From Candidatus Micrarchaeota archaeon (GTDB lineage: Archaea > Micrarchaeota > Micrarchaeia > Burarchaeales > Fermentimicrarchaeaceae), in contig JAPLWT010000030.1 of the NCBI GenBank assembly GCA_026396455.1, positions 1-45,284 on the forward strand: DNA of 45,284 nt. Reading direction: 5' to 3'. Shown in pieces: positions 1,799-28,895 of this stretch. Position numbers and translations under genes: made by a program. Under the pieces are notes generated by a model. That model searched no databases, was not told where the DNA came from, and saw only the letters and a list, made by a program, of their open reading frames with translations. Numbering within the stretch: position 1 is the first letter of the stretch; every line of letters starts with the position of its first letter.

Positions 1799-1942
1799 CT
1801 AAACTGACACAAGCCAGCCGTCCTTGTCAAGCTTGAACCTGTGTGCTTGGTTTCTTTTGCAGACAAACTCCCCGGAGTTCTCTTCCTTCAGCTCGGTTGC
1901 TATTGAACTTTCCATGTTGCACTTTGGGCAGATCTTCGCCAT
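1799..1942 (-). CDS. small zinc-ribbon protein (47 aa), absent from the ORF track
   Basis: Hand translation gives MAKICPKCNMESSIATELKEENSGEFVCKRNQAHRFKLDKDGWLVSV. It has CPKC plus C-x5-H ligands. GGGGGTGAGATA sits immediately upstream of the ATG (strong SD) and the ORF ends in TAG at 1799-1801. Confidence 0.5.
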   Translation of the reverse strand: MAKICPKCNMESSIATELKEENSGEFVCKRNQAHRFKLDKDGWLVSV

Positions 1943-2050
1943 TATCTCACCCCCTTCTTTAGAAGTAGAAGCTATCAGCCCTAAGGCAGTTCGGCGTCAA
2001 GCCAGGCTAGCTTCATAGCCCAGTATTTAATGCAAACTTCATTTAAATAT

Positions 2051-15902: not shown

Positions 15903-15949
15903 ACGAAAACCTCCACTAATTTAATATTTTGCTGTTTAAATCCTTATTT

Positions 15950-17143
15950 ATGGAGAGGGACACTTTAATAAAAGTATTTACGCTGGTGCTCGTAGCGGCT
16001 TTCATGCTCGAGTTGTTCAGCATGCGCTCGTCAGTTACGAATACCACATCCTTGAACAGTACAACGCCGAGCCAGGAGCCTTCCCTGTATGGGACAGGCC
16101 AGACATCGGCAACCCTCCTATCCTACAAGGAGTATCTGAATGTCTTCAAAGCTGGGAGGGATCTGACGATTAACTCCTCATTAGGAGAGATCAGGGATAT
16201 AGACGGGGTTGGCTACCTTAACAGACAGGGCGGGGCGTTAATTGTCGTCCTCGACCAGAGCGCTAACGTGCCTCTTATAGCCAGTGAGATAGAGCAGATG
16301 TTCCCGGACCTCAACGTAACCGCAGTCGGACAGTTCGAACTGCCACCAACTGTTGAATTCACAACTTCGGAGGGCAAGAGGAATGTCAGCATGAACGCAG
16401 TAATAGAACTTGAGATAGAACCCAATATTCTTCCGAGTGACAATGTCACCCTGTCGCTCATAGGGCTTGTGTCCGGGGATAACCTTGCTGGAAGTCCTGT
16501 GGCAAAGGTGATACCAACACAGGGGGAGGCCCTTGCGAATGCCACCATAAAAGAAGCAACTTATGATTATGGGGCAGTTGCCATAATTCCCTGGGGGAGC
16601 AGGAATTTGAATGCAAGCAGGATAAGGGAGGCCCTCTCAAATGAGGTTTGGAATCTTAGCATGAATTACAGCCCCAGGTCTTTCGTTTTGGTGAATGGCC
16701 TTGACTCAGCAAGTGATGAAATCGTGAAGAAGGTTGAGAACCTGAGCTATGTTACGGGTGTGTTCAGCACTGAGGTTGATTTGAGAGACGAGATGAATGA
16801 CTCCGAAAAGCTTGGAAGCGATATAAAAGGAATTCTTGGAGACAACACCACCATTGACTACCCAAGCTCTGTGATAGAGATGACATTCCACTCCGAAAAT
16901 CTTAGCAAGGATGGGCTGTTCAAGAGTATTGGTTGGACTCCGGTGGTATACAGGAGGATGTCTATTGAGGTTAGCGGAAAGCTGAACATATCTGGAGTGG
17001 AGTATGACGTGCCCAGCAATACTACTTTTGACGAGATGCTTGTTGATTCCTATTCTGTCGGGCAGCAAATTGGCGTGTGGCTCGATACGGGGACAATAGG
17101 CAGAAGGATTGTGAATTTGAAGCTTGATAGAATCGCGCAATAG
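15950..17143 (+). CDS. membrane-anchored, N-glycosylation-sequon-rich surface protein (hypothetical)
   Basis: N-terminal hydrophobic helix (IKVFTLVLVAAFMLELF) followed by about 16 N-x-S/T sequons by my count. ATG at 15950 follows a TTTAAAT box; the track starts at TTG 15929. Confidence 0.6.
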   Translation: MERDTLIKVFTLVLVAAFMLELFSMRSSVTNTTSLNSTTPSQEPSLYGTGQTSATLLSYKEYLNVFKAGRDLTINSSLGEIRDIDGVGYLNRQGGALIVVLDQSANVPLIASEIEQMFPDLNVTAVGQFELPPTVEFTTSEGKRNVSMNAVIELEIEPNILPSDNVTLSLIGLVSGDNLAGSPVAKVIPTQGEALANATIKEATYDYGAVAIIPWGSRNLNASRIREALSNEVWNLSMNYSPRSFVLVNGLDSASDEIVKKVENLSYVTGVFSTEVDLRDEMNDSEKLGSDIKGILGDNTTIDYPSSVIEMTFHSENLSKDGLFKSIGWTPVVYRRMSIEVSGKLNISGVEYDVPSNTTFDEMLVDSYSVGQQIGVWLDTGTIGRRIVNLKLDRIAQ

Positions 17144-21690: not shown

Positions 21691-23112
21691 ATGGTTGAGG
21701 AAGGAGAATACAGCGAGGAGGATGCAGAGAGCTACTACAAGACGGGTAATGAGTACTACGAGAAGGGCAACTTCGACCTCGCGGTGGAGTACTACAACAA
21801 GGCAATAAGAGCAGACCCCATGTTTGACAAGGCGTATTACAACAGGGGGCTGGCCTATGCCTGCAAGGAGGAGTATGACAAGGCTATTGACGATATAAAC
21901 AAGATGATTGAGCTGAAGCCGAATTTTGCTGAAGCATACTATATTCTGGGGCTGGCTTATGAGTACAAGAACATGCCCGACAACGCTATCGAGAACTACG
22001 ACAAGGCGCTGGAGCTCAACCCGGATTTCAAGGATGCCCAGAATAGATTGGAGCTGGCAAAGGGCAAGAAGGAGAAGGCGAAGCAGGTTACCACAACGGA
22101 GCCTGGCACCCTCATGAAAGTTGAGTTCATAGAGAAGCCAGATATGAACTTCAATGACGTTGCGGGAATGGAGCATGCTAAGGAGACCATAAATGAGCAG
22201 ATAGTCTACCCGTTCAAGAACCCCCAGCTGGCTAAGAAGTATGGAAAGAGCGCCGGGGGAGGCCTATTGTTCTACGGCCCTCCAGGATGCGGTAAAACCT
22301 TCATGGCAAAGGCAACTGCCGGCCAGTGCGACCTGAAATTCATACACGCCAGGATAAACGAAATTGTCGACATGTATGCCGGGAATACTGAGAAGAACCT
22401 GCACAGGGTTTTTGAGACTGCAAGAAAAAATGCTCCTGCCGTGGTCTTCTTTGACGAGATGGAGGCTATGGGAGGCAAGAGGGAGGGGGATATGCAGGGA
22501 TTCCAGAAAATGGCAATCAACCAGTTCCTTGCGGAGATGGACGGGCTTGAGAGCACCACTGAGAACATTCTGGTGATAGGAGCGACAAACGCCCCCTGGG
22601 ATGTGGATCCTGCCCTCAAGAGGTCCGGAAGGTTCGGCAAAACGATATATGTCGGGCTTCCTGACAAGAAGTCTAGGGAGGCGCTGTTCAAGCTTTACTC
22701 TAAGGACAGGCCTGTCAAGGGGATATGGTGGGGCAGGCTTGCCCGAGCCACCGAGGGGTATTCAAGCGCGGACATAAAGCAGCTTTGCGAGGATGCCGCG
22801 ACAATACCTTGGAAGGAAGCATATCAGGGTAAAAAGGAGAGGCCGATTGCGATGAAGGACTTCATGAAAGCGATAAGGAAGAGGAAATCCACCCTTCCAG
22901 AGTGGTTCGGCACTGTCAGGAAGCAGCTCGTTGGGAAGAAGGAGAAGGTTGTGCAGGATGGAAAAGAGCACTGGGTTGAGCACGAGAGCAAGCTTTCGCC
23001 TGAGGAGAGGCAACTTTACAAGGACTTGGTAAAGGATGTCCGCCAGTATACCGAATGGAAGTACAAAGTTCCGAGAATGATAAAGACTGAATTCGCCAGG
23101 TGGGTTTTCTAG
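21691..23112 (+). CDS. TPR-repeat / classical AAA+ ATPase fusion
   Basis: Three 34-aa TPRs (AESYYKTGNEYY.., DKAYYNRGLAYA.., AEAYYILGLAYE..). Walker A GPPGCGKT, Walker B VVFFDEME and an SRH region ATNAPWDVDPALKRSGRFG. Confidence 0.85.
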   Translation: MVEEGEYSEEDAESYYKTGNEYYEKGNFDLAVEYYNKAIRADPMFDKAYYNRGLAYACKEEYDKAIDDINKMIELKPNFAEAYYILGLAYEYKNMPDNAIENYDKALELNPDFKDAQNRLELAKGKKEKAKQVTTTEPGTLMKVEFIEKPDMNFNDVAGMEHAKETINEQIVYPFKNPQLAKKYGKSAGGGLLFYGPPGCGKTFMAKATAGQCDLKFIHARINEIVDMYAGNTEKNLHRVFETARKNAPAVVFFDEMEAMGGKREGDMQGFQKMAINQFLAEMDGLESTTENILVIGATNAPWDVDPALKRSGRFGKTIYVGLPDKKSREALFKLYSKDRPVKGIWWGRLARATEGYSSADIKQLCEDAATIPWKEAYQGKKERPIAMKDFMKAIRKRKSTLPEWFGTVRKQLVGKKEKVVQDGKEHWVEHESKLSPEERQLYKDLVKDVRQYTEWKYKVPRMIKTEFARWVF

Positions 23113-24080
23113 CTTATCCTGTCTATTACCTTAACTGCTCCTTTTATGCCAAGCAAGTCAACCATCACGTTCATGGAGCGTGTCAGGAGGGCAAAGGCAA
23201 CGCTTTCGTATGGGGGAACACCGAACAGGTAGAGCACTGCGGCAGCGCCTCCCTCTGACAGGCCCATTCCGGCAAGCGTTGGGGCTGGTATAAACTGGAG
23301 CATTGTTATAAGCGGTTGGAGGAAGGCGAAGAAAATAATTTCTGGCAGCTGGGAATTCACCTGCATGCCAACGCTCTTCGCAACAAGCAGCCATTCCAGC
23401 GATTTCAATGCCCAGGTTATGGCGAGGAGCACAGCTATCTGGGGGATGAATTTCCTCACGGTTCTTGAGTTTCTCTGCATGTCTGAAAGAAGGGAGTGGG
23501 CATGATCGCCGTAGGGAAACATCCTTATGAAGGAGATGCTCTTGACAAACTTGCTTGAGAAAAGCAACAGCGCCATGAGCACTACCATTGCTAAGAAGAT
23601 ACCGAACCCTACTATCATTCCGACGAACTTCATCTCGCCCCCGGTTTTGTATGAGATGAGTTCCAGTATGTACCACATTGCAATCGCCCCTGCTATGCAT
23701 TTGAAGGCGAATTCGAACAGCTGTGGACCGAATATGGAAAGCATTGATTTGTGCAGTTTTATTTTTGAGTTGGCGGTTATGAGGAATGCGGTTGCGAAGT
23801 AGCCTGTCCTGCCAGGAGTGAAATCCGAGGCGAGCATCCCCGACAGGCCGGCCTCAGTGGAATCGGCCAGGCTTATCTTCTCGTTTAAATCATTGAGGAG
23901 CATTCTTATCCTGAACCCCATGAGAATGTTGATTGCAAGGTAGACCAGCATGGAGGCGAATAGGTAGAATAGGTTGACCCTCCATATTATTGCCAAAACC
24001 TTATCAAAATCCGAGAGGTATAGGACAACAGCAATGGCAAGCAGAGAGACGAGAATTTGAATTATGGTTGATTTCTTCAT
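23109..24080 (-). CDS. UPF0104 (LPG-synthase-TM / flippase-like) family membrane protein
   Basis: Polytopic protein with an N-terminal pattern typical of UPF0104. C-terminal PAPTLAGMGLSEGGAAAVL..ALLTRSMN resembles the family's P-G-G-x-G-x-E ... R motif. Confidence 0.6.
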   Translation of the reverse strand: MKKSTIIQILVSLLAIAVVLYLSDFDKVLAIIWRVNLFYLFASMLVYLAINILMGFRIRMLLNDLNEKISLADSTEAGLSGMLASDFTPGRTGYFATAFLITANSKIKLHKSMLSIFGPQLFEFAFKCIAGAIAMWYILELISYKTGGEMKFVGMIVGFGIFLAMVVLMALLLFSSKFVKSISFIRMFPYGDHAHSLLSDMQRNSRTVRKFIPQIAVLLAITWALKSLEWLLVAKSVGMQVNSQLPEIIFFAFLQPLITMLQFIPAPTLAGMGLSEGGAAAVLYLFGVPPYESVAFALLTRSMNVMVDLLGIKGAVKVIDRIS

Positions 24081-24161: not shown

Positions 24162-25142
24162 ATGAGTGGGGAGATAGTGCAGAATCTAGAGCTTCTTTTC
24201 AAGAAATTCGTTAAGAAAGCTAGAATCCGCACCGATTGGGGAATTCTCGCAAGAACAGAGAGGTATCTTGCACCCTATGTGAATGTTCTAAGGAGCGAAC
24301 TTAGTGCCTCAGAGTGGACTGTCCTGATAGCACTCTCTTCAATGATGGGTTTCATCATCCTGCTGCTTCCCGCGTATGCGCTTACCGAATCACCTGAACT
24401 CGCGCTTCTGTTCTCGTTTATGGGTGCAATATTCATCGGTTATGTCTTCATAACAATACCAACAATGCTGGCGTTCATGAAAGTGGAGAGGATGGAGAGG
24501 GCAATGCCCATGTTTCTTTCCCACTTGACTGCAGTCTACGCTGATAGGAAGAATATGAGGGATGCTCTGCTCAGCGTCATGCCCATGAATTACGGCCCGC
24601 TTTCCTATGAACTGAGGGAATCAATCTCCAATTTTGAGGTGAGCGGGAATCCTATAACCGCCTTCAGGAGATTGAGGGAGACGATAAAATCCAGAAGGAT
24701 AAACAGGGCTTTTGACCTTATAATCAAATCGATAGAGGGCGGAGTGAATGTTTCGGAGTCCCTCGGCATACTGACGAATAACATAACATCTGACTTGGAG
24801 GCGGAGGCAGAGAAGAGCAGCAGGATAGGGATGTCAACTTGGATGATTTTCCTCTCATCATCGTTCTTCTACCCGCTCTTCGCTGGAGTGGGCTACAACA
24901 TCACCTTGATATTGGAGGGGCTGATGGGTGCGCCTCTCTACTCCAGTATAGAGAAACAATTCCTGTTATTCAGCTTGCTCATGTACATGCTGATGGGAAC
25001 TGCGCTTGATTCGATGTTCATAGGGCAGGCCAGATATGGCTCGTTTAGGAGAGGATTGGTGATAGTCTTCCCATTGATGTTGCTCATGGCTTGCGTTGTT
25101 TTCATTATTTCGATGAAACTTACTGGAATATTTGTGGGGTGA
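24162..25142 (+). CDS. half-size T2SSF-domain (TadB/C, FlaJ, PilC-like) pilus assembly platform protein
   Basis: A single T2SSF-like segment (MPMFLSHLTAVYADRKNMRDALLSV..GPLSYELRES..GNPITAFRRLRE..RRINRAFDLIIKSIEGGVNVSESLGILTN) flanked by TM helices. GGAGGTG SD. Confidence 0.65.
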   Translation: MSGEIVQNLELLFKKFVKKARIRTDWGILARTERYLAPYVNVLRSELSASEWTVLIALSSMMGFIILLLPAYALTESPELALLFSFMGAIFIGYVFITIPTMLAFMKVERMERAMPMFLSHLTAVYADRKNMRDALLSVMPMNYGPLSYELRESISNFEVSGNPITAFRRLRETIKSRRINRAFDLIIKSIEGGVNVSESLGILTNNITSDLEAEAEKSSRIGMSTWMIFLSSSFFYPLFAGVGYNITLILEGLMGAPLYSSIEKQFLLFSLLMYMLMGTALDSMFIGQARYGSFRRGLVIVFPLMLLMACVVFIISMKLTGIFVG

Positions 25143-25146
25143 GTGT

Positions 25147-25425
25147 ATGGCGTGCATATCGATTGAACTTGCAGTGGCGATGTTGTTCTTCGCTGGAGCG
25201 ATGATACTCTTCAGGGAATACCAGAACATGAAGACGCTGAACGTTCTGAAGAATGAGAGCGACGACTTGAGGGATGCAATATACGCACTGCAGAAGGAGG
25301 AGAAGAACTTCAGGGAGAAGGATTTCAGGAAGCTGCTGGGCGACTTCAACAGGCTCAAGGAAAGGGCTGATGAAGCGGAAAATGAAAATATAAGGCTGAA
25401 GAAGAGCTTAGGAAACAGAAAATGA
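25147..25425 (+). CDS. pilin-like N-terminal helix fused to a charged coiled coil (hypothetical pilus accessory protein)
   Basis: MACISIELAVAMLFFAGAMILF resembles the mature N-termini of the neighbouring pilins (QISIELYASIAAV). An approximately 65-aa K/E/R-rich heptad segment follows. GGGGTGA SD lies 4 nt before the ATG. Confidence 0.5.
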   Translation: MACISIELAVAMLFFAGAMILFREYQNMKTLNVLKNESDDLRDAIYALQKEEKNFREKDFRKLLGDFNRLKERADEAENENIRLKKSLGNRK

Positions 25426-25752
25426 AGTGCTTAACCCGCTGCTGGGGTCGGTCACGTTTACCATTATAGGGTAGCTTGAGGAATCCATGGAGACCTTCAG
25501 CCCATAGCTGTTTGAGAGCGAGTCTGCTATCGAGGTAGCCCACTGCACCCTTCCCTTTTCATCAACATGCCTGTAACTCCTTGTTATTATATTCCTCGCA
25601 ATCGCTATTCTGTCCGAATGTATCTCGGCAGACACCATGGAGCGGTAGTTCTTGCTGGCTATGTACTGCGAGTGCGAGCTAAGCAGGAATACGAAACCCA
25701 GCATGAAGACTGAGAGCACAAGCAGGCCTGCAAATCCTCTTCTCATCGCCAT
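25408..25752 (-). CDS. prepilin-like protein (class III signal peptide-like N-terminus)
   Basis: MAMRRG-FAGLLVLSVFMLGFVFLL: basic residues, Gly, then a hydrophobic helix. Last gene of the overlapping pilin operon. Confidence 0.55.
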   Translation of the reverse strand: MAMRRGFAGLLVLSVFMLGFVFLLSSHSQYIASKNYRSMVSAEIHSDRIAIARNIITRSYRHVDEKGRVQWATSIADSLSNSYGLKVSMDSSSYPIMVNVTDPSSGLSTSFSVS

Positions 25753-26180
25753 AAGCTCACCCGGATAAGCCTGCTGTCAGCCCCTCCTTTCAGCGGAATT
25801 ATTACTGGGAACTGTTCCTTGTGCGTAAGCGGTGCGCTGCTTATCTGGACCGAGAATGAAGTGGAGCCTTCTATATCCACGTCAATCCTGCTCACCCCCA
25901 GCAGCTTGCCGTAGTTGTACAGCCTCAGACTCAGCGAATTGATCTCCCCTCCCGAGAGGTATCCCTTGAATTCAAGCCCCCGGGCTATTGTTGAGTATAT
26001 CATCTCATCCTCATAGAAGGCATTCACAATGTCATAGCCCGCCCTCTCCAGAGCCAGATCGCCCGTCTCGTGCCTGTCCTGCGGCCATGCTGCAAACAGC
26101 GAATAGGAAAGAATGATTGCAAGGAATAGGGAGAGCACGCCGTCTATTATCATTATCTGGGCTTTCTTAAGACTCGGCAT
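25743..26180 (-). CDS. prepilin-like protein (class III signal peptide)
   Basis: MPSLKKA-QIMIIDGVLSLFLAIIL. 14-nt overlap with the upstream gene and 10-nt overlap with the downstream gene. Confidence 0.6.
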   Translation of the reverse strand: MPSLKKAQIMIIDGVLSLFLAIILSYSLFAAWPQDRHETGDLALERAGYDIVNAFYEDEMIYSTIARGLEFKGYLSGGEINSLSLRLYNYGKLLGVSRIDVDIEGSTSFSVQISSAPLTHKEQFPVIIPLKGGADSRLIRVSLWR

Positions 26181-27435
26181 AGTTCACCACCAAGCGGTAG
26201 TTGAAGCTTCCCTGTATTGCGCCAAACGAAAGCGTGTTGTCTCCTCCCTTCAGGTACTTTGAGATATCGGTAACTGAATTGGCTGGGATGGAGTTGCCGT
26301 TTACTGAGATGCCAGTCACAGTGCTGGGGTCTGCAGTCTCACTTGCCGGGGCGTAGTAGTTTATCACAAGAGTTGCATCTCCTGCCGCAACATTCGAACC
26401 ATAACCGCCAGGCGGGCATGGACTGATTGCTGGCTGCATGGTGATGCTTACTGTGTTCAGACCGGCTTTTACAACGTCTGAGGGGGTTGCTGTCTTGACG
26501 CCATTAACGTATACCTCCATTGAACCGCTGAGCGGGTGATTGTATAGCAATGCACTTGTTATGAAGCTTTCCTGGGGTATCTCAACAGTGCCCTGCTGGC
26601 TGAAGAAGTTTGATGAACTGATTCCTTCAGAGTCTCCCCCGAGAGTGCATGGGGAAATTTGGGAATATCCGTAGGAAGCTTGCGCGCTTGCACTTCTGTC
26701 CTCGTACAGATGGGCATCCGTTATCTCAAGCACTGCTGAATAGATCACTGCATCCTGGGGCAGCGAGAAAATCTCCGTGTATGAGGAAGTATCCTTCGCA
26801 ACTATCTTCTTGTCTATGTTGAATGTCCTTACAAAACCGCTCGCAGGCGCCCTCGTGTCAAGTACTGTGAGGTTAGTGCTAACGACCAGTGACTCGTTGG
26901 TGACTGGATTCACAAGCACGCTCCCGTTATCATCCTGCGCCACAGCTGTGACGTTATAAACGCCTGGGTTGGAGGGCACAAATGTTGATGTGATTGTATG
27001 CGAGATGACCACCGTGACATTGTACTCATCCGAAACGGAAAGAGAAGTCTCATTGCCAGATGCGTTCACGACGCGTATGAGGAGATGCGGCACCTTCATC
27101 GGGTTGGGGTAGTTGTTCCATGCCGTGAGCTGTATCATCGAAGGCTGGTAGAGGAAGTACGGCTCGCTCTTTTTAATCTCGAGAGAAACCAAACTGGCAT
27201 TCGCGTACTCTCCTGAGCCGCCGGAGACTGGGTAGAAGCCTGTGCCGAAACTCTCATTGCTGAGGTATGACAGGAGACCGGTTGATGCGTTCTCCACACC
27301 TCCGCGTGTTGCGGAGTAGGCTCCCTGCTGAACCTTCATTATCTCGGACAGGCTCATCACTCCAGCGAGCACTACGAGCACAACTGCGGAGAGTATCAGA
27401 AGAAATTCTATAGAAGTCTGAGCTCTCACGGCCAT
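26167..27435 (-). CDS. large pilin-like protein, candidate tip adhesin (class III signal peptide plus glycosylated Ig/PKD-like region plus Cys-bearing C-terminal domain)
   Basis: MAVRA-QTSIEFLLILSAVVLVVL. 10 sequons, all within residues 49-190. PKD-like stretch SNPGVYNVTAVAQDDNGS. ISPC-x2-GG occurs twice. Confidence 0.7.
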   Translation of the reverse strand: MAVRAQTSIEFLLILSAVVLVVLAGVMSLSEIMKVQQGAYSATRGGVENASTGLLSYLSNESFGTGFYPVSGGSGEYANASLVSLEIKKSEPYFLYQPSMIQLTAWNNYPNPMKVPHLLIRVVNASGNETSLSVSDEYNVTVVISHTITSTFVPSNPGVYNVTAVAQDDNGSVLVNPVTNESLVVSTNLTVLDTRAPASGFVRTFNIDKKIVAKDTSSYTEIFSLPQDAVIYSAVLEITDAHLYEDRSASAQASYGYSQISPCTLGGDSEGISSSNFFSQQGTVEIPQESFITSALLYNHPLSGSMEVYVNGVKTATPSDVVKAGLNTVSITMQPAISPCPPGGYGSNVAAGDATLVINYYAPASETADPSTVTGISVNGNSIPANSVTDISKYLKGGDNTLSFGAIQGSFNYRLVVNYAES

Positions 27436-27791
27436 ACCTTCACCTCCATAAGAATGGGTTGGTTGTTGACAAAAACCAATCTCCTAGCTGAATATACATT
27501 GACGTTGTCGGGCGCATAACCCCCGAAATGCGCCTCACCGATACTGACCTCGACTTTGTCCCTGAAAGTTGTGTTGAGCCTTACCAGATCCAAGTTTCCT
27601 CCCGGGCCCACATACCTCTTCGCTATCATGTCTGCAATATTGTCGGCAACCAGGTTCATCCTCTCATCCGCTATGTAAACGTTGGTTCTCTTCTCAAGAA
27701 TTAAAAAATTCGAACCGAGCAGCATCATGGCTAGGAAAGCGACCAGAATGGAAAGCATTTCCTCGCCAAATATCAATATTCCTTTCCTCAT
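27426..27791 (-). CDS. prepilin-like protein (degenerate class III signal peptide)
   Basis: MRKG-ILIFGEEMLSILVAFLAMMLL. ATGA overlap with the upstream gene. Confidence 0.5.
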   Translation of the reverse strand: MRKGILIFGEEMLSILVAFLAMMLLGSNFLILEKRTNVYIADERMNLVADNIADMIAKRYVGPGGNLDLVRLNTTFRDKVEVSIGEAHFGGYAPDNVNVYSARRLVFVNNQPILMEVKVWP

Positions 27792-28216
27792 CCACTTCCC
27801 TCCATTACAAGGAGCTTGCCTCCGTCAGTTTGGGTTATGGATACCCTTAATCCCTCAAGAGTGGTGCCTGCTATTGTGCTGGCGGAAGGATATCCGTCAG
27901 GAGTTACTATGACCCTGTTTGAGCTGAAGCTTATGTTGTAGTCAACCTCTTTTGAGAAGCTGACTCCCCGGAGCTTATTCGGGAGCATGAGGGAGATTGA
28001 ACAGCTGCCTTCCCTGCACAGGTTCCTCTGCAGCATGTCCGCTGAATTTGCTATTCTCTGCGCGAGCATAACTGATGCCATATTTATCTGGTTATTCTCC
28101 TCGCTCCTGCTTATCTGAATGGTGAAAACCAAGGAGGACAGGAAGAGCAGCAGAACTGCCGCTATGGAGGCGTAAAGCTCTATGGATATCTGCCCTCTAG
28201 TACATGAATTCAACAA
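27788..28216 (-). CDS. prepilin-like protein (class III signal peptide)
   Basis: ..CTRG-QISIELYASIAAVLLLFL. TTG start follows GGGTGA. Confidence 0.65.
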   Translation of the reverse strand: MLNSCTRGQISIELYASIAAVLLLFLSSLVFTIQISRSEENNQINMASVMLAQRIANSADMLQRNLCREGSCSISLMLPNKLRGVSFSKEVDYNISFSSNRVIVTPDGYPSASTIAGTTLEGLRVSITQTDGGKLLVMEGSG

Positions 28217-28613
28217 TCACTTCACCCGTTTTCCTGCAGTACATCCTTGCCACATGTCTTCCTCCGGATAGCGTGAAATTGCTGGGGAGGATGGATAACC
28301 TGTAGGGAGTCACCCTGCTGAGGTTCATCCCGCGGAATGTGAATGAGGTTATGTACTGGCCGTCAGCAATTCGCGTCTGGGAGTAGTTCGTCAGCCCATC
28401 GGGCACGTATATCGATATTATCCTCTGGGATCCCTCGACCATCACATCCGCATTCCCGTAAATCGTTTCAATAGAATCCGCGAACCTTGCTGTTGAAAGA
28501 GAGGGGCCTATGCTTCTGACACCTCCCTGCAATGAGTACAGAGTGAAGACGAGCAGCGTTACACCTACTGCTAATATGAGAAGGAATTCGACGCTTGTTT
28601 GTCCCCTCAACAT
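28197..28613 (-). CDS. prepilin-like protein (class III signal peptide)
   Basis: MLRG-QTSVEFLLILAVGVTLL. I chose the ATG at 28613, 5 nt after the upstream stop. The track ORF starts at 28658, which would give a longer leader. Confidence 0.65.
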   Translation of the reverse strand: MLRGQTSVEFLLILAVGVTLLVFTLYSLQGGVRSIGPSLSTARFADSIETIYGNADVMVEGSQRIISIYVPDGLTNYSQTRIADGQYITSFTFRGMNLSRVTPYRLSILPSNFTLSGGRHVARMYCRKTGEVIVEFMY

Positions 28614-28617
28614 GGCA

Positions 28618-28845
28618 TCAAGTGCTATTCGTATTGTTTGTCGAGTTTCTGAGCTCATTCAGTTGTCCTTCTATAGCCTGCACTGGAGACTGACTCTTAT
28701 TGTCTATTGTCACATTGCCCTGGGTGCTGGACCTGAGCTCTTTAATCGTTAAGAAAAGGCTTATCATCAGCAGCACGACAACTGAAATTAGCAGCAGATA
28801 CTCTATCGTAGTCTGTGCTTTTTTCAACTGGGGGCGTGTTTTCAT
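28618..28845 (-). CDS. very short prepilin, candidate major pilin (class III signal peptide)
   Basis: MKTRPQLKKA-QTTIEYLLLISVVVLLM. 75 aa with 5 N-x-S/T sequons in the tail. First gene of the operon, with GGTGAG SD. Confidence 0.7.
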   Translation of the reverse strand: MKTRPQLKKAQTTIEYLLLISVVVLLMISLFLTIKELRSSTQGNVTIDNKSQSPVQAIEGQLNELRNSTNNTNST

Positions 28846-28895
28846 GATCTCACCATCCGGAATATATTAGGGAGCGGATTATTTAAACTTTATAC
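28846..28895 (-). promoter_or_regulatory. promoter and SD region of the pilin operon
   Basis: The minus strand reads GGTATAAAGTTTAAATAATCC...GGATGGTGAGATC-ATG. This gives an A/T-rich TATA-like element and GGTGAG 4 nt before the start, in the 50-nt gap after thyX. Confidence 0.4.

Follow-up and report, generated by a model that had tools for sequence, protein, structure and literature searches.

The 45,284-nucleotide (nt) contig JAPLWT010000030.1 of a Candidatus Micrarchaeota archaeon, the whole of which we call the window, carries a type IV pilus-like locus. Seven consecutive minus-strand genes, running from 28845 down to 25408, encode pilin-like proteins P1 to P7 of 75, 138 (or 153), 142, 121, 422, 145 and 114 amino acids (aa), and two plus-strand genes, for a platform protein with a single T2SSF domain (T2SSF-2) and for a small coiled-coil protein, converge on them (Table 1). 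This layout had been proposed in an earlier, sequence-only reading, and the nine open reading frames (ORFs) that it listed are all present at their coordinates. The window is a segment of archaeal chromosome, with genes for FttA, a proteasome subunit, EF-2, ThyX, GlmS, PdxS/T, RpoA'', ribosomal proteins S7 and S12, NusA and four tRNAs on board. Judged by its proteins, the source is a relative of Ca. Fermentimicrarchaeum limneticum, a DPANN archaeon, in agreement with the DPANN origin suspected earlier: the 326-aa and 422-aa proteins have homologues in Micrarchaeota only and are 70% and 59% identical to their counterparts in strain Sv326 of Ca. F. limneticum, the closest complete genome (1.18 Mb, CP058998.1). 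The Sv326 pilin locus (L001) has the same gene order and the same flanking genes as the window. Related loci (L numbers below) were found by scanning species-representative genomes with an ATPase profile and by homology to window proteins.

Table 1. Features of the pilus locus and their coordinates in the window
Feature	Coordinates	Strand	Description	Basis or remark
T2SSF-2	24162..25142	+	326-aa polytopic membrane protein, one divergent T2SSF domain	Profile comparisons, AlphaFold2 (AF2) model
Coiled-coil protein	25147..25425	+	92 aa, bitopic	Start from gene call on identical contig
P7	25408..25752	-	Prepilin-like, 114 aa, MAMRRG/FAGLLVLSVF, mature 108 aa	Relaxed class III rule
P6	25743..26180	-	Candidate minor pilin, 145 aa, KKA/QIMIID, mature 138 aa	Relaxed class III rule
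P5	26167..27435	-	Modular prepilin, 422 aa, MAVRA/QTSIEF, mature 417 aa	Class_IIIsignal E=6.3e-4
P4	27426..27791	-	Prepilin-like, 121 aa, MRKG/ILIFGEEMLS, mature 117 aa	Relaxed class III rule
P3	27788..28216	-	Candidate minor pilin, 142 aa, TRG/QISIEL, mature 134 aa	Strict class III regex
P2	28197..28613	-	Candidate minor pilin, 138 aa, MLRG/QTSVEF, mature 134 aa	Class_IIIsignal E=1.4e-3
P1	28618..28845	-	Prepilin, 75 aa, MKTRPQLKKA/QTTIEY	Strict class III regex; Class_IIIsignal E=3.9e-4, 20.7 bits
TATA-box-like TTTAAATA	28880..28887	-	Candidate promoter element	Directly after thyX stop codon, ~35 nt upstream of P1 start

The pilin operon and its class III signals

Each of the seven products begins with a leader of 4-10 residues, ending in a basic residue plus Gly or Ala ([KR][GA]), and continues as a hydrophobic helix some 20 residues long; in 5/7 of them Gln stands at +1 with an acidic residue at +5 or +6 (QTTIEY, QTSVEF, QISIEL, QTSIEF and QIMIID). 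This class III N-terminal pattern is far beyond chance. Among a control set of 189 window ORFs of at least 60 aa, a strict rule (a FlaFind-like regular expression combined with a hydrophobic core free of charges) picked out four, all inside the operon, and none of the other 185. A relaxed rule, which asked for [KR][GA] among the first 30 residues and then for 22 residues of mean hydropathy of at least 1.5 with no K or R, picked out eight, namely the seven operon genes and one of the 182 others, a spurious ORF antisense to ribosomal protein genes. The Pfam model of the signal (PF04021, Class_IIIsignal, DUF361/UPF0333, QxSxExxxL) has a gathering threshold of 23.7 bits, which is not reached by P1 (20.7 bits), P5 (20.0) or P2 (18.9; E=4e-4 to 1.4e-3), with the Q-T-T/S-I/V-E motif visible in them. 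The claim of seven prepilins stands on class III-type N-termini found in 7/7 products and conserved in their orthologues, and the signal check proposed with it gave 7/7 by the relaxed rule, 4/7 by the strict one and sub-threshold Pfam matches in P1, P2 and P5.

The genes are tightly packed, as had been read from the sequence: from P2 to P7 successive genes overlap by 20, 4, 10, 14 and 10 nt. The same claim fails for the first pair, P1 and P2, which are separated by a 4-nt gap when the conserved 138-aa start of P2 is taken. A start at 28658 would lengthen P2 to 153 aa; orthologues do not share it, and the gene call on an identical Logan contig also gives 138 aa. A GGTGA or GGAGG-like Shine-Dalgarno-like motif lies 5-10 nt before the start of P1 (GGTGAG, read from the sequence, before its ATG) and of P3-P7; no clear motif of this kind was found upstream of P2. 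The TTTAAATA box could serve as the promoter of the operon, and at the other end of the operon the 3' ends of P7 and of the convergent coiled-coil gene overlap by 18 nt.

Orthologues of all seven pilins, in the same order, were found by BLAST against the ORFs of seven related loci (L001, L003, L012, L013, L015, L017 and L018), so the seven-gene order that the synteny check was to look for recurs across Micrarchaeota with its cleavage sites. Nearly every orthologue has a basic residue and G or A (S once) before the helix, with leaders of varying length; for two L012 entries the site-picker returned no N-terminal site. Cleavage sites and mature lengths are kept among orthologues that share only 25-50% identity. 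Because the seven globular parts show no similarity among one another, the pilins are distinct subunits in a fixed set, each conserved in its own right, and not a series of recent duplicates. They are rich in N-x-S/T sequons, with 1.79 per 100 aa as against 0.31 in 14 other window proteins taken as cytoplasmic from their Pfam families (about six-fold), and none of them matches a substrate-binding or DNA-binding family in Pfam or NCBIfam. GenBank labels all their Sv326 counterparts hypothetical; the automatic UniRef names of the Sv326 genes agree with our assignments at the level of domains (GspF, Class III signal peptide, PilX N-terminal, 4Fe-4S ferredoxin-type).

P1 is the candidate major (shaft) pilin, of the Epd/Flp type. 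Its mature form has 65 aa, starts with QTTIEYLLLISVVVLL and is devoid of a globular domain; in 4/5 orthologues (L001, L003, L013 and L017, not L012) the first 16 residues of the mature form are the same or almost the same, five sequons fall within its 75 aa, and its Sv326 orthologue is named Class III signal peptide / UPF0333 protein by UniRef and JGI. The P1 orthologues of Burarchaeum-like loci (L003:14701-15174, minus strand; L013; L017) are longer, about 151 aa when mature, and carry an extra C-terminal CarboxypepD_reg-like, that is immunoglobulin-like (Ig-like), domain of about 90 aa (E=1e-5). Since orthologues exist with and without this domain, a globular domain must have been added to or removed from the shaft pilin in the course of the phylum's history.

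The other small pilins would be minor subunits. Mature P2 measures 133-134 aa in 5/6 orthologues (L001, L003, L012, L013, L017) and 135 aa in L015, with only 29-37% identity outside L001, and P3 has orthologues at the same operon position in L001, L003, L012, L013 and L017, their [KR][GA] site kept. P4 is a putative minor pilin in which Gln is missing from +1 and acidic residues stand at +6/+7 (at +5 in the L003, L013 and L017 orthologues); it has orthologues in six loci and a weak C-terminal match to Pfam DUF7287 (E=6e-3). The acidic residue of P6 is at +6, and its orthologues, again in six loci, keep the site as [KR][GA]/Q (e.g., QALTLE). P7, the last gene, has no acidic residue near +5; orthologues occur in seven loci, with an R/K-G/A site in 6/7 (R-S in L017) followed by a hydrophobic helix, and the Sv326 one is a 'PilX N-terminal domain-containing protein' in UniRef. 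Some bacterial minor pilins do not have Glu5, and P7 may be analogous to them.

P5 differs from the rest by its size and modular build. In the AF2 model a pilin helix (residues 3-41) and a poorly modelled linker lead to an Ig-like beta domain (82-191) and then to a large, variable C-terminal beta-sandwich (200-422) modelled with confidence (predicted local distance difference test, pLDDT, about 90); Foldseek finds weak local similarity to Ig, filamin or CARDB-like folds. Pairwise identity over 22 orthologues averages 88% in the helix and drops to 47-52% in the C-terminal domain, to which all 37 indel columns are confined. Such variability fits an exposed, fast-evolving distal module, and P5, which has ten sequons, is our candidate for the tip adhesin.

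A platform split in two and a distant motor

Alone, the T2SSF-2 sequence matches Pfam T2SSF below threshold (E=0.021), and it matches the NCBIfam ArlJ/FlaJ model with E=2.5e-9 over model positions 189-454 of 465. Comparison of its family with that of T2SSF-1, the platform protein that accompanies the ATPase in related genomes, gives a probability of 95.6% in hhalign (E=1.3e-8, 185 columns). T2SSF-1 aligns to the N-terminal half of the ArlJ/FlaJ model and T2SSF-2 to its C-terminal half; by these alignments the two together make up a full-length FlaJ/TadC-type platform split into two genes. The AF2 model of T2SSF-2 is all-helical (pLDDT 78.5), and its best local Foldseek matches are the T2SSF cytoplasmic domains of OutF (5NBG), EpsF (2VMB) and TcpE (4HHX), with TM-scores of 0.61-0.69; searches of the PDB with the T2SSF-2 profile and the P1 sequence gave spurious matches only. 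In distant relatives T2SSF-2 always adjoins T2SSF-1 and the ATPase. The NCBIfam match, the hhalign result and this adjacency confirm that the 326-aa protein is the single-domain T2SSF protein it had been taken for.

The 92-aa protein encoded next to T2SSF-2 consists of an N-terminal transmembrane helix and a charged coiled coil. The label of pilin-like that it had been given does not hold, and we reject it as a pilin: it has no [KR][GA] cleavage site, and basic residues follow its transmembrane helix. An alignment with the L001 and L012 orthologues shows a conserved LQ.EE..FRE.D motif, and the gene is found only in Fermentimicrarchaeum-like and L012 loci. It is probably a membrane-anchored accessory component with its coiled coil in the cytoplasm and could, by analogy, be a FlaX-like scaffold.

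Neither a T2SSE ATPase nor an A24 peptidase was found by Pfam among 37 window ORFs, which comprise nearly all the large ORFs that are not antisense inside another gene, and the five scanned ORFs without a Pfam match, read by eye, have features of neither. The missing motor that the sequence-only reading had pointed out is thus a true absence from the window, and of the two explanations it had offered, machinery split across the genome or a motor borrowed from another system, the first is the one borne out in Sv326. There, the ATPase orthologue (733 aa) lies at about 193.9-196.2 kb (L007:8001-10202) with T2SSF-1 (288 aa) immediately downstream, and the pilin/T2SSF-2 locus lies at about 710 kb, some 514 kb away. 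Two of the parts whose search elsewhere had been advised, an ATPase and a second T2SSF protein, are therefore present in the closest complete genome. Sv326 T2SSF-1 matches Pfam T2SSF with E=2e-16, and the ATPase matches Pfam T2SSE with E=5e-22, and afGspE (2OAP; E=6e-50) and CpaF (8RKD; E=2.7e-29) in the PDB. NCBIfam models do not discriminate further, since FlaI, TadA and BasE all match the ATPase far below their cut-offs (BasE with E=5e-24, FlaI and TadA scoring better).

In more distant Micrarchaeota the parts stand together. L003 has T2SSE (563 aa), T2SSF-1 (335 aa) and T2SSF-2 (310 aa, with 40% identity to its window counterpart), which converge on the seven pilin genes, and in L015/P0036 and L012 the ATPase, T2SSF-1, T2SSF-2 and pilin genes are all co-directional, L012 having the coiled-coil gene as well. 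The ATPase is encoded in cis in L003, L012, L013, L015, L017 (Burarchaeum) and L018, and T2SSF-1 adjoins T2SSF-2 in L003, L012, L013, L015 and L017; orthology was shown for every pilus gene between the window and related loci. The Sv326 ATPase is a full-length match to a profile of the in-cis ATPases (L003, L012, L015) and is 86% identical to P0028. Because distant relatives keep a single locus and Sv326 keeps the orthologous ATPase/T2SSF-1 pair apart, a split of the machinery across the genome is supported. Around the ATPase the gene order is TrbC-like pilin, arrestin-N-like, Fer4-T2SSE, T2SSF-1, AMMECR1, PAS protein and LigD_N, and because this neighbourhood recurs in L006 and L086 the split is an arrangement kept stably throughout the clade, not an error of assembly.

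Some details of these loci can be recorded in their own right. The TrbC-like gene directly upstream of the Fer4-ATPase in Sv326 (L007:5761-6081, minus strand) encodes a 106-aa TrbC/VirB2-type 'T4SS_pilin' (PF18895 5.6e-9, TrbC 5.6e-7), and a 147-aa arrestin-N/Spo0M-like protein is encoded upstream too (L007:6154-6597, plus strand); both genes occur in L006 and L086 as well. A conjugative-type pilin beside a type IV pilus motor is odd for an archaeon. L012 has an extra 535-aa gene (weak DNA_primase_lrg match) between the coiled-coil gene and pilin 1, and L015 an extra 246-aa class III protein. Two metagenome-assembled genomes carry two paralogous Fer4-ATPase loci each, AlinenSediments_bin-3476 (L012 and L015) and Sv174 (L008 and L010), and both copies in bin-3476 are complete co-directional ATPase/T2SSF-1/T2SSF-2/pilin operons.

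The distance between pilins and motor invites two other explanations. An orphan pilin cassette might borrow its motor and platform from another, non-cognate type IV system of the cell, given that no ATPase is encoded in cis, that Micrarchaeota often encode more than one T2SSE ATPase (paralogues of about 500 aa, 35-44% identical) and that the micrarchaeon Mia14 has two systems (PMC5498576). We think this quite unlikely: the Sv326 ATPase matches the in-cis ATPases over its full length and is still found immediately before T2SSF-1, and keeping T2SSF-2 with the pilins makes sense only if the partner half-platform is kept too. Alternatively, the cassette could be a decaying remnant that stopped working once it was separated from its ATPase, a notion to which the physical distance and the 65 residues of mature P1 (151 in Burarchaeum-like relatives) lend something. 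It is a most improbable one, however, in view of nine intact ORFs out of nine, of orthologues at 54-98% identity in many Fermentimicrarchaeum-clade genomes with overlaps and start sites conserved, and of an ATPase/T2SSF-1 locus that is likewise intact and conserved.

The cognate ATPase itself has an unusual feature. In the Fermentimicrarchaeum clade, the T2SSE core is preceded by a fused N-terminal domain of some 150 aa whose 16 Cys make up four CxxCxxCxxxC-like ferredoxin-type motifs; this domain matches Pfam Fer4_7 (2e-9), DmsB/NrfC/AegA-like models and PDB 9MQX_E (2e-9). The Fer4-ATPase also occurs in L006, L008-L012, L015, L016 and L086, and the Burarchaeum-like orthologues (563-580 aa) do not have the Fe-S domain. 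The domain may relate to the requirement of Sulfolobus Aap pili for the Fe-S protein AapX, the reason for which is unexplained (PMC11178785). An improbable extension of this idea is that the platform was uncoupled deliberately, T2SSF-2 acting as a cassette-specific adaptor and T2SSF-1 being kept with a redox- or energy-sensing four-cluster Fe-S ATPase, such that pilus assembly would be gated by cellular or host-derived reducing power; if true, a redox-gating fusion would explain why the Aap pili need AapX.

Proposed assembly of the filament and its likely role

We consider it very probable that what the locus encodes is one half, filament and adaptor, of a Micrarchaeota type IV pilus that belongs to the archaeal (Epd/Tad-like) kind with two platform genes, the other half being encoded elsewhere. 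The type IV pilus-like character first read from the window is upheld by the class III N-termini, the T2SSF homology and the complete loci of relatives. In the mechanism that we propose, a single operon with its own TATA-like promoter would be transcribed into a polycistron of tightly packed genes and yield the seven prepilins, which an unlinked class III signal peptidase would cleave after [KR][GA]. Mature P1 would then polymerise into a thin, glycosylated, Flp/Epd-like shaft, and P2-P4, P6 and P7 together with the 417-aa P5 would form a priming and tip complex that caps the fibre, the fast-evolving beta-sandwich of P5 facing outward as the likely binding module. The platform would be heteromeric, with T2SSF-2 supplied by this locus and T2SSF-1 by the gene directly downstream of the cognate PilB/FlaI-type ATPase elsewhere, and the heteromer would dock the hexameric ATPase, in this clade with its 16-Cys Fe-S domain. 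The most probable role, by analogy, would be adhesion to a host cell or a surface; we favour it because of the DPANN lifestyle, the adhesion and the pilus-dependent episymbiosis that have been reported for the Epd pilus and for candidate phyla radiation (CPR) bacteria, respectively.

A machine that is real and not an adhesive pilus could also be imagined: a short pseudopilus or uptake device (Com-like DNA uptake or a piston as in type II secretion systems, T2SS) or a bindosome-like display. One tiny major pilin with five or six minor ones is also the layout of Com and T2SS pseudopili, and DPANN archaea depend on imported nucleotides and DNA. For a bindosome one may cite the BasE (bindosome ATPase) match mentioned above, better though FlaI and TadA score, and the proposal that substrate-binding proteins with class III signals functionalise type IV filaments (10.64898/2026.04.22.720090). 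We hold these possibilities to be unlikely. The seven pilins match no substrate-binding or DNA-binding family, P5 looks like a modular Ig/beta-sandwich protein of surface type whose hypervariable distal domain fits adhesion better, and the closest characterised system, the Methanococcus Epd pilus, is adhesive (PMC4858521; 10.64898/2026.04.22.720090).

Several observations weigh against the adhesive two-platform pilus that we prefer. Every Pfam or NCBIfam match of the pilins and of T2SSF-2 is below curated thresholds, the Foldseek E-values for T2SSF-2 are non-significant, and P5 has no confident Foldseek match to a known adhesin. The ATPase/T2SSF-1 locus was seen in close relatives (T2SSF-2 about 70% identical), from which its presence in the genome of the window itself is extrapolated. 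A prepilin peptidase was found neither in the window nor within about 10 kb of 18 related loci, by a heuristic scan near the loci, not genome-wide, for multi-transmembrane proteins with GxGD-like motifs. Finally, the filament itself is a prediction from the genes.

What the locus offers is a complete parts list for a surface filament of a widespread clade of freshwater and sediment Micrarchaeota whose genes are 'hypothetical' in GenBank: one shaft pilin, six accessory pilins (including the hypervariable 422-aa candidate adhesin), two half-platforms, a coiled-coil accessory protein and a motor. It also means that essential machinery can be split across about 0.5 Mb, and detectors that require a co-located ATPase and both platform genes would miss such systems or call them incomplete. 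The Fe-S domain of the cognate ATPase bears, in turn, on why some archaeal pili need an Fe-S protein.

Next to T2SSF-2 lie a TPR-AAA ATPase gene (21691-23112, plus strand) and a gene for an LPG_synthase_TM/flippase-like membrane protein (23109-24080, minus strand). Both neighbours are kept in the window and in Sv326 (L001), and not in the distant complete loci, and their synteny with T2SSF-2 is probably coincidental. The AAA+TPR protein was considered as a pilus motor and rejected: it is a classical AAA ATPase (PF00004), not T2SSE, and a conserved neighbour in the Fermentimicrarchaeum clade only. Elsewhere in the window, a 404-aa protein (15929-17143, plus strand; Sv326 orthologue at L001:2021-3220) without a Pfam match is hydrophobic in an N-terminal segment and contains 16 N-x-S/T sequons (3.96 per 100 aa); it is probably a heavily glycosylated surface protein. 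A fluoride riboswitch (1959-2029, minus strand; Rfam RF01734, 39.9 bits) lies just 3' of the enolase gene and 5' of an ORF (1799-1942, minus strand) for a Cys-rich, zinc-ribbon-like protein of 47 aa (MAKICPKCN...), which is neither CrcB nor another recognisable fluoride exporter.

Comparison with known pilus systems

Among archaeal filaments, an archaellum was rejected: no archaellins (PF01917) and no FlaF/G/H/X or FlaC/D/E were found by Pfam and NCBIfam in the window or among the gene calls of relatives. The Aap pilus of Sulfolobus acidocaldarius has one platform gene and two pilins, and its AapX is a separate Fe-S protein (PMC11178785), whereas here an Fe-S domain is fused to the assembly ATPase; the two are likened by their Fe-S character. 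In the same phylum, the micrarchaeon 'Ca. Mancarchaeum acidiphilum' Mia14 has type IV pili loci of clade 1 and of a euryarchaeal clade, clade 2, and a single FlaK-like prepilin peptidase unlinked from both, and its authors propose a role for pili at the host interface (PMC5498576). Compared by description only, the Mia14 loci are contiguous gene runs, for which no split platform and no Fe-S ATPase are described (PMC5498576).

The bacterial Tad/Flp pilus (TadA/CpaF, TadB, TadC, Flp, TadE/F; PMC6668835) likewise uses two half-size platform proteins, TadB and TadC, and shares with the present system a CpaF-like ATPase (8RKD) and a very short major pilin, the QTTIEY of P1 fitting the Flp G/XXXXEY motif by eye. 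In contrast to Tad/Flp, there are seven distinct pilins here, one of 422 aa, and the host is an archaeon. Because P1 has no match to Pfam Flp_Fap, and because no secretin (RcpA), TadZ or TadD was found among the 37 Pfam-scanned window ORFs or the gene calls of related loci, the locus is not a member of the Tad family, Tad-like as it may be in its working.

The closest likeness is to System 1, or Makarova clade 1, as exemplified by the Epd pilus of Methanococcus maripaludis: (i), the platform is made from two TadC-like genes, and two-platform-gene System 1 occurs in DPANN (10.64898/2026.04.22.720090); (ii), the major pilin has about 65-75 aa, no globular domain and the Q-x-S/T-x-E motif (Class_IIIsignal/DUF361/UPF0333); (iii), a large adhesin-like class III protein accompanies at least five distinct minor pilins. 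In the clade 1 model the major pilins are of about 70 aa and the minor ones number at least five (PMC4858521), and here we find the 65 aa of mature P1 and six further distinct class III proteins, P2-P7. There are also differences: the window locus lacks genes for an EppA-like peptidase, a FleN/MinD ATPase and a DUF2341 adhesin, its second platform gene and its pilins are not linked to the ATPase and first platform gene, and the ATPase has an Fe-S N-domain. By gene architecture, the system would belong to System 1 / clade 1 (Epd-like), with the two-platform subsystem 4A as the alternative; 4A loci with two platform genes have been noted in some DPANN and split loci within subsystem 4E (10.64898/2026.04.22.720090). 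The locus thus represents a known archaeal pilus system in rearranged form; the machine is not of a new kind. Two things about it are mildly unusual: its platform halves, one encoded beside the motor and the other beside the pilins, are separated by about 0.5 Mb, and its cognate ATPase has an N-terminal 16-Cys Fe-S domain. It leaves the basic picture of archaeal type IV pili unchanged.

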